IMG/VR virus record: IMGVR_UViG_3300030320_000049
Origin: a virus
Reading direction: 5' to 3' (one strand)
DNA: 64,000 nucleotides
Below the pieces are notes generated by a model. It searched no databases and was not told the origin of the DNA. It saw only the letters and a list, made by a program, of their open reading frames with translations. Positions 30,513 to 30,698 of the stretch are shown here, in pieces; the stretch's first letter is position 1; every line of letters starts with the position of its first letter. The position numbers and the translations under genes were made by a program.

Positions 30513-30541
30513 ATTTCCTATCTACACTTGGTAGATGAAAT
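30513..30541 (-). repeat. Hairpin H2 (ATTTC-ATCTAC-CAAGT-GTAGAT-AG-GAAAT), Cas12a-repeat-like
   Basis: Read from sequence immediately 3' of tRNA-CAU-1. The stem-loop TCTACCAAGTGTAGAT differs at one position from the Lb-Cas12a repeat stem-loop TCTACTAAGTGTAGAT, as I remember it. Confidence 0.4.
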
Positions 30542-30612
30542 AGCAGGAGACGGATTCGAACCGCCGTTTTCATGGATATGAGCCATGCGAGATTCCGCTT
30601 CTCTATCCTGCC
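30541..30612 (-). tRNA. tRNA with CAU anticodon (elongator Met or lysidine-Ile2)
   Basis: GGCAGGA TA GAGA AGCGGAA TCTC G CATGG CTCATAT CCATG AAAAC GGCGG TTCGAAT CCGTC TCCTGCT A. No initiator features. Confidence 0.8.
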
Positions 30613-30659
30613 GGAACCCGGAAGAACCGGGTTAGCAATAGGTTTATCGTGTTATGCTT

Positions 30660-30698
30660 TCCACTATCTACAAGTTTTAGTGCTGTAGATTCACTGGA
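30660..30698 (-). repeat. Hairpin H1 (TCCA-GTGA-ATCTACA-11 nt-TGTAGAT-AG-TGGA), paralog of H2
   Basis: Same ATCTAC/GTAGAT inner stem, AG bulge and outer stem as H2. Lies about 50 nt 5' of tRNA-CAU-1. Confidence 0.4.

Follow-up and report, generated by a model that had tools for sequence, protein, structure and literature searches.

H1 and H2, two hairpins on either side of a tRNA(CAU) gene on the minus strand of the window (the whole stretch of 64,000 nucleotides that was analysed, IMG/VR virus record IMGVR_UViG_3300030320_000049), are probably the 5' hairpins of two paralogous structured spacers in a polycistronic transcript of tRNAs and tRNA-like RNAs, where they would act as insulator or processing elements at the junctions of exchangeable cassettes. 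This reading starts from the observed anatomy, paralogy, conservation pattern and context of the modules to which the hairpins belong. As a structured spacer of a tRNA operon the element is of an ordinary kind; the island that contains it is unusual. The initial annotation had offered two explanations, a Cas12a-directed RNA decoy and a repeated RNA hairpin of the tRNA cluster; the second fits the data, which reveal paralogous modules between tRNA genes with a presumed role in processing. The main value of the analysis is negative, in that a tempting RNA anti-CRISPR call fails against real Cas12a repeats and phage relatives. In addition, two conserved spacer modules were defined that border a tRNA-cassette zone of high variability; the gut phage family in question is abundant and also encodes a Ro60-fold protein and RtcB.

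The phage has a genome of approximately 77-84 kb that encodes a terminase, a portal, a capsid protein and an integrase. Human gut samples have yielded several hundred related contigs, and the hairpin stretch is 98% identical to one IMG/VR record. The exact TerL gene (22345-24090, minus strand) is present in 147 collection blocks, and none of the contigs concerned exceeds 81 kb. Some contigs of the Ro60-like clusters P0157 and P0246 are 168-171 kb long, about twice the genome length, and may be concatemer assemblies.

H1 (30698 to 30660, minus strand) reads UCCA-GUGA-AUCUACA-GCACUAAAACU-UGUAGAU-AG-UGGA and H2 (30542 to 30513, minus strand) reads UAUUUC-AUCUAC-CAAGU-GUAGAU-AG-GAAAU, in exact agreement with the letters and positions first given. 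From sequence and predicted fold, H1 has an outer helix (UCCA/UGGA), an internal loop (GUGA/AG), an inner helix (AUCUACA(G)/(U)UGUAGAU) and an A-rich loop (GCACUAAAAC). H2 has an inner helix (AUCUAC/GUAGAU), the loop CAAGU and a weak outer helix ((A)UUUC/GAAA(U)) from which AG is bulged; its start coincides with the last two bases of tRNA(CAU), at 30541-30612. The pattern ATCTAC-N3-12-GTAGAT occurs once in the window (0.02 expected). Predicted folding is modest for H1 (-10.6 kcal/mol, z = -2.1) and modest and thermodynamically weak for H2 (-6.5 kcal/mol, z = -1.2). As a whole, the 224-nt stretch was predicted to form separate local hairpins and the tRNA cloverleaf (z = -2.95).

In a prediction scan, neither H1 nor H2 was called as a promoter-like or terminator-like site, and the hairpins were accordingly rejected as promoters. 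They were also rejected as intrinsic terminators, since besides the lack of a call the stems are rich in A and U, and AGGAAA or AGUGGAAA, not a U tract, comes after them. By inspection, the internal loop of H1 (GUGA/AG) is not a K-turn, as AG stands ahead of the outer stem in the non-bulged strand, where a K-turn would have GA.

Each hairpin is the head of a spacer module of 40-55 nt, made up of the hairpin, the sequence UAG(U)GGAAA and a small AGCA/UGYU hairpin. Paralogy of H1 and H2 had been proposed from the hairpins themselves; it is borne out and extends past the palindrome. End-to-end alignment of the H1 module (30613-30705) with the H2 module (30482-30545) gave a score of 33, whereas shuffled sequences scored 17.9 ± 3.5 and none of 1000 reached 33. 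The accompanying caveat, that sequence 3' of GUAGAU is common to the two hairpins, was correct. The L1 leader (30613..30665, minus strand) consists of (U)AGUGGAAAGCAUAACACGAUAAACCUAUUGCUAA and the hairpin AACCCGG-loop-CCGGGUU, a GC hairpin additional to the common module plan. L1 has its 3' end 2 nt short of tRNA(CAU). Taken as UAGUGGAAAGCAUAACACGAUAAACCUAUUGCUAA plus this hairpin, it is near-invariant in relatives (41 distinct sequence variants), and pairing in the GC hairpin is kept through two compensatory double changes while its loop varies freely. L2 (30482..30519, minus strand; AGGAAAUCUGACUUUAGCAUAGCUAUUGUUGGUUUUUA) forms the rest of the H2 spacer and is the paralogue of L1 by alignment. 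A mini-ORF in L1 (GUG GAA AGC AUA ACA CGA UAA) was rejected, as its stop is not kept in variants.

Both modules lie between tRNA genes and on the tRNA strand. The order of the same-strand RNA block is tRNA-Gln, tRNA(CAU), H1-L1, tRNA(CAU), H2-L2, an insertion-bearing tRNA, a tRNA-like RNA, a 483-aa ORF and a UCA tRNA. The tRNA between the two modules (30541..30612, minus strand) has the anticodon CAU (ARAGORN; Rfam tRNA, 59.9 bits); CCA is not encoded and the trailer is U-rich. Directly 3' of L2 is a tRNA-shaped RNA with a 51-nt insertion in the anticodon loop (30368..30481, minus strand; Rfam tRNA, 48.7 bits). The inserted hairpin UAGUCA/UGACUA of this RNA is AAGUCA/UGACUU in MT838485, a compensatory change, and the RNA is kept there. 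A second tRNA-shaped RNA comes next, at 30275-30367 (minus strand). Between tRNA-Met and H1, at 30700-30900 (minus strand), there is a further conserved structured stretch (GAGUUAAAAAUAUUAACGCAGCGCACGUUAAUAAAAGGAGUUUUCAA), in which the hairpin UUAACG/CGUUAA becomes UCAACG/CGUUGA in MT838485, also a compensatory change. The tRNA at 28541-28612 (minus strand), just 3' of the Ro60-like gene, has UCA at the anticodon (opal-suppressor type) and C33, and its first acceptor pair is a mismatch.

Downstream of the RNA array, 28673..30124 (minus strand) encodes a protein with the fold of Ro60 (a TROVE-like ring plus vWA), assigned from PHROG, Pfam, AlphaFold and a PDB fold search. The ORF matches PHROG 850 ('RNA-binding protein') and Pfam DUF2828, DUF7788 and VWA_2. 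Searched as a sequence profile against the PDB, the protein found the vWA domain alone. A model from a shallow alignment was poor (pLDDT 57), and one built from a diverse alignment was used instead (pLDDT 90.6). The best nine PDB fold matches of this model are full length and all Ro60/TROVE (E 4e-7 to 1e-5, TM-score 0.41-0.60), including frog Ro, Deinococcus Rsr and the Ro60 of Thermus phage phiLo. Pfam TROVE had no match in 301 Lachnospiraceae genomes. The wider context includes a gene for an RtcB RNA ligase (24108..25310, minus strand; PHROG 1075; Pfam RtcB E = 4e-64).

Each hairpin is found again in related phage contigs (more than 112 for H2); outside the phage family, H2 with its flank motif was met as two chance occurrences only, in bacterial genomes. 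About 120 related loci have H1 with little or no change. Other relatives have at least six different stem sequences at the H1 position, ending 0-2 nt before the invariant UAGUGG; these alternatives include GGGCUG/CAGCCU, GGCAA/UUGCC, UCCGGU/ACCGGA, AUCCAG/UUGGAU and CCAGU/ACUGG. Type A (AUCUACA/UGUAGAU) and type B (GGGCUG/CAGCCU, the commonest alternative) are both 25 nt long and have a similar loop, GCAC...AAAA(C). Stems other than type A are short (5-6 bp) and singly not significant, and a combined shuffle test for a hairpin at the H1 position gave P = 0.0046. RNAalifold, run on a MAFFT alignment, missed this hairpin, the stem classes being offset by one column; the stems were instead tabulated by script and assessed with the shuffle test. 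Since relatives have other sequences in place of the H1 stem, the stem is not under selection to be AUCUAC/GUAGAU.

Approximately 140 H2 loci were compared. The 5' flank is UUCC in about 110 of these and (A)UUUC, as in the window, in six. CAGGU is the commonest loop, followed by CAAGU, CAUGA and CAUGC, with the first two bases (CA) constant. The inner stem showed no compensatory change, one G.U variant and one A.C variant, and wobble asymmetry over H1 and H2 together (2 versus 2) gave no strand signal. Judged from these stem variants, constraint on H2 at the RNA level is not demonstrated.

The modules stay the same while their neighbours change. The first tRNA 3' of L1 is one of at least seven among the phages, including CAU, Tyr and Arg(CCU). 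On the 5' side of H2-L2 stands one of at least four tRNAs, and on its 3' side one of at least five RNAs; three loci have H2-L2 downstream of the Ro60-like protein gene. In some relatives H2-L2 is missing as an indel of about 55 nt, and the two tRNA genes are there 5-7 nt apart; since such relatives exist, H2-L2 is not essential for processing. The constancy of the modules beside differing tRNA genes indicates that they are also fixed junctions of an exchangeable tRNA-cassette region.

The tRNA array itself is modular, with more than 40 gene orders in 80 loci upstream of the Ro60-like gene (L004-L083), in which the head of the array (Gln-Met(CAU)) is constant and the variable zone follows L1. 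In MT838485 (L001), the tRNA after L1 has the same acceptor and T arms with anticodon CCU (Arg) for CAU. Arg(CCU) tRNAs also occupy the slot after L1 in L029, L032, L037 and L051, so that the decoding identity of the slot differs between close phages.

From this arrangement we infer co-transcription, a processing role for the modules and the RNases involved. The array would be transcribed as one precursor, in which each module would fold by itself, keeping the adjoining tRNAs from joint misfolding. The modules may also offer host RNases defined entry and stop points, by which the flanking tRNAs would be freed and their ends protected. RNase Z would presumably cut 3' of the CCA-less tRNA(CAU), and RNase P would cut 2-4 nt past the GC hairpin of L1. 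In Firmicutes, CCA-less tRNAs are processed by RNase Z, and the absence of CCA from tRNA(CAU), together with its U-rich trailer, fits processing of this kind. If the modules prove to be signals for processing or exchange, they would help to explain how phage tRNA arrays mature and are reshuffled.

Polycistronic tRNA operons, such as the tRNA cluster of phage T4 and bacterial arrays, have structured spacers and leaders and are processed by RNase P, RNase Z and endonucleases. They likewise have short hairpin-bearing spacers among same-strand tRNA genes, conserved as units, and a CCA-less tRNA with a U-rich trailer. What differs here is that the two spacers are paralogous and conserved in sequence while the surrounding tRNAs are swapped, that the island has a Ro60-fold protein and RtcB, and that the processing role is a presumed one.

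A serious rival is that the constraint acts on DNA, the palindromes ATCTAC...GTAGAT and their flanks being protein-binding or recombination sites that mark the tRNA-cassette junctions and help related phages to exchange, gain and lose tRNA genes. Such a role is possible but doubtful. It would account for constant modules with variable cargo on both sides, for H2-L2 as a presence/absence block that also occurs at a second position, downstream of the Ro60-like protein gene, and for an H2 stem of invariant sequence without covariation. It also agrees with the fact that, in the clade of the window, the variable zone has the same core at either end. However, the half-sites are spaced by 5 nt in H2 and 13 nt in H1, which is awkward for a single dimeric DNA-binding protein, and conservation is asymmetric (3' flank UAG-GGAAA) and oriented with the tRNA strand. 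The tolerance of unrelated stem sequences at the H1 position also argues against a DNA site, as does the gene content, for no gene for a recombinase or nuclease is linked to the modules and the small neighbouring ORFs are without family matches.

The two roles could be combined in fixed junctions of an exchangeable tRNA-cassette system, which would both direct processing of the adjoining tRNA and serve as a homology or recognition site for tRNA gain, loss and swap. This combination, in a phage family that is widespread in the gut, is unlikely, and a smaller part of its probability falls to a non-canonical Cas12a-handle decoy within the tRNA precursor.

Roles as a ligand of the Ro60-like protein or as a Cas12a decoy are less likely than a DNA-level junction or binding site. 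Under the first, H1-L1 and H2-L2 would be Y-RNA-like modules that load the neighbouring Ro60-fold protein on the tRNA precursor, which is quite unlikely. The protein is encoded approximately 390-575 nt downstream on the same strand, its full-length fold matches Ro60/TROVE only and RtcB is encoded nearby; in addition, the layout of helix, internal loop and helix recalls Ro-binding stems. H1-L1 contains GUGGAAAG, one base off the YrlA motif GNCGAAN0-1G (PMC4201824), and H2 has AGGAAAU, but the motif is too short to weigh. Set against this, Rfam Y-RNA and YrlA models had no match in 27000-33000 at E ≤ 1, the Rfam scan of the array giving tRNA matches only, and H2 is without the GUG and GUGG parts. 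A covariance model of L1 found no match beside 54 Ro60-like genes (39-86% identity), where comparable hairpins were also absent, so the modules are not co-conserved with the protein. In the rsr-Y RNA (YrlA)-rtcB locus (Chen et al. 2014, PMC4201824), a Ro60-fold protein, RtcB and tRNA-like RNAs are likewise clustered, and H1 and H2 would fall within the RNA block. The protein described here is, however, of the DUF2828 type and not Pfam TROVE, and H1 and H2 are unlike YrlA.

More distant relatives (86% protein identity) have a different array of 10-13 tRNAs, without L1 and L2. The L1 and L2 modules are confined to a single subclade, and their association with the Ro60-like protein is not obligate.

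The least probable reading, for which very little likelihood remains, is a Cas12a decoy of the Racr or Cracr type, in which H2, perhaps with H1, would imitate the 5' handle of a crRNA and sequester or redirect the Cas12a of the host. RNA anti-CRISPRs against type V-A are already known, both Racrs (RacrVA1-3; PMC10651486) and Cracrs (CracrVA1; 10.1101/2024.10.29.618823), and like H2 they are phage-encoded with a 5-bp stem of the Cas12a type and a terminal U. The stem UCUAC/GUAGA and terminal U of H2 (A-UCUAC-CAAGU-GUAGA-U) are identical to those of Lachnospiraceae array repeats, the copy in the window also has four loop bases in common with a real Lachnospiraceae repeat, so that its loop is one base off, and the H2 stem is invariant. 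Relatives of the phage TerL (55-65% identity) are found in Lachnospiraceae genomes, which makes that family, as far as sequence can tell, a plausible host, and Cas12a is carried by 9 of 401 sampled genomes of the family.

The initial annotation had named a Lachnospiraceae handle and matched H2 to it at 16 of 17 positions. The handle, UAAUUUCUACUAAGUGUAGAU, is real and was found in arrays of a Lachnospiraceae MAG and of one other bacterium. The match holds for the core (UCUAC-UAAGU-GUAGAU, 15 of 16 positions) but falls to 16 of 21 over the full 21-nt handle. The five mismatches are the four bases 5' of the stem, where H2 has UUCA and the handle AAUU (a difference in the 5' flank had been an early caveat), and the first loop base, which is C and not U.

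Natural repeats were taken from arrays of the nine Cas12a carriers among the 401 Lachnospiraceae genomes and from all arrays with a YAAGU loop in 185,579 species genomes, the latter all being UAAUUUCUACUAAGUGUAGAU. Nearly all have the form ...AAUUUCUAC-U(N2-5)-GUAGAU; the exceptions are a divergent type, AAAUAUCUACUGUUGUAGAC, and one with the stem UCUGC/GCAGA. AAUU is present in eight of the nine repeats extracted (the divergent type has AAUA), and the first loop base is U in every natural Cas12a repeat examined. In H2, AAUU is absent directly 5' of the stem (UUCA in the window, UCCA in most relatives), and none of its loop variants (CAAGU, CAGGU, CAUGA, CAUGC) begins with U. The AAUU motif is needed for crRNA maturation, and these same positions, the motif and the first loop base, include partners of a U-U pair and a reverse-Hoogsteen A-U pair in the pseudoknot (PMC6507119). 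Without AAUU and with C as the first loop base, H2 cannot form these two pairs as a crRNA does.

Departure from the canonical sequence also sets H2 apart from known RNA anti-CRISPRs. Validated and catalogued V-A solitary repeats retain that sequence; the catalogued units have 36/36 identity to their repeat, and the RacrVA2 primer is canonical too (AAUUUCUAC-U..GUAGAU; PMC10651486 supplement). Known Racrs and Cracrs have a near-full copy of the repeat, including AAUU and a loop that begins with U, and their own promoter, none of which was found in H2; Cracrs also have a promoter-matching guide, which H2 is without. Furthermore, the family-majority form of H2 (UUCC flank, CAGGU loop) is less Cas12a-like than the copy in the window, and the two details of that copy that look most like Cas12a (the AUUUC flank and AAGU loop) are, on the loci compared, lineage-specific and in the minority among the related phages. 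That the inner stem is identical to the stem of Cas12a repeats is best taken as coincidence.

Comparison with CRISPR repeats, proposed in the initial annotation, gave no natural CRISPR-like array with the H2 hairpin in 185,579 species genomes or JGI metagenomes. The pattern searched for, two ATCTAC-N5-GTAGAT units at CRISPR-like spacing, matched five loci in the genomes and 25 in the metagenomes, all of them unrelated palindromes or tandem repeats and none a V-A array. The canonical Cas12a handle was absent from the window and from 1.77 Mb of related loci. The L1 20-mer was absent from the 185,579 species genomes.

The sequence 3' of H2 had also been taken for a putative spacer, and no meaningful target of it was found in the genomes searched. 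With up to three mismatches, this guide-like flank matched 3 of 401 genomes (three mismatches each), against about 1.7 estimated by chance. None of the three is a Cas12a carrier, and the match with a TTTA PAM is inside an FMN-reductase gene. At the nine cas12a loci the flank matched no promoter, and the sole PAM-flanked seed was 8 nt beside TTTG in the cas4/cas1 region of one locus. In the other direction, no spacer in the retrieved Cas12a arrays matched the window or related loci. A host lineage that lacks V-A systems or has a different repeat had been named as evidence against a decoy; at the level of the family, to which this comparison is limited, Cas12a is rare and the repeats differ from H2 at critical positions.

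A Cas12a-directed decoy is thus not supported, since AAUU and a U-first loop are missing, no natural array was found and the H1 stem is replaced in relatives. From their sequences H1 and H2 are not convincing mimics of Cas12a CRISPR repeats, and H2 fails four defining sequence features of the class. A 5-bp stem and one further base are insufficient to call a Cas12a mimic.

Unusual repeats were seen in some of the genomes searched. The Lachnospiraceae genome G074:C2 (L112, L113, L101) has four arrays with the repeat GTTTAAGAAAAAAATAAATATCTACTGTTGTAGAC, which has A for the usual U before the stem and C at the 3' end. One of these arrays directly adjoins a divergent Cas12a-like gene (445 bits to TIGR04330), and the genome also has a canonical V-A locus. 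In metagenome contig Ga0268261_10170382 (L254), a repeat with a period of 69-70 nt contains ATCTAC-TRAAA-GTAGAT with both flanks conserved, and may be an unclassified CRISPR-like array or a tandem repeat.

In some relatives of the phage (L275-L277), a Tad2-like gene (PF11195, the anti-Thoeris sponge family) borders the RNA array approximately 1.4 kb upstream of the Ro60-like gene, which suggests an anti-defence setting for the RNA island.
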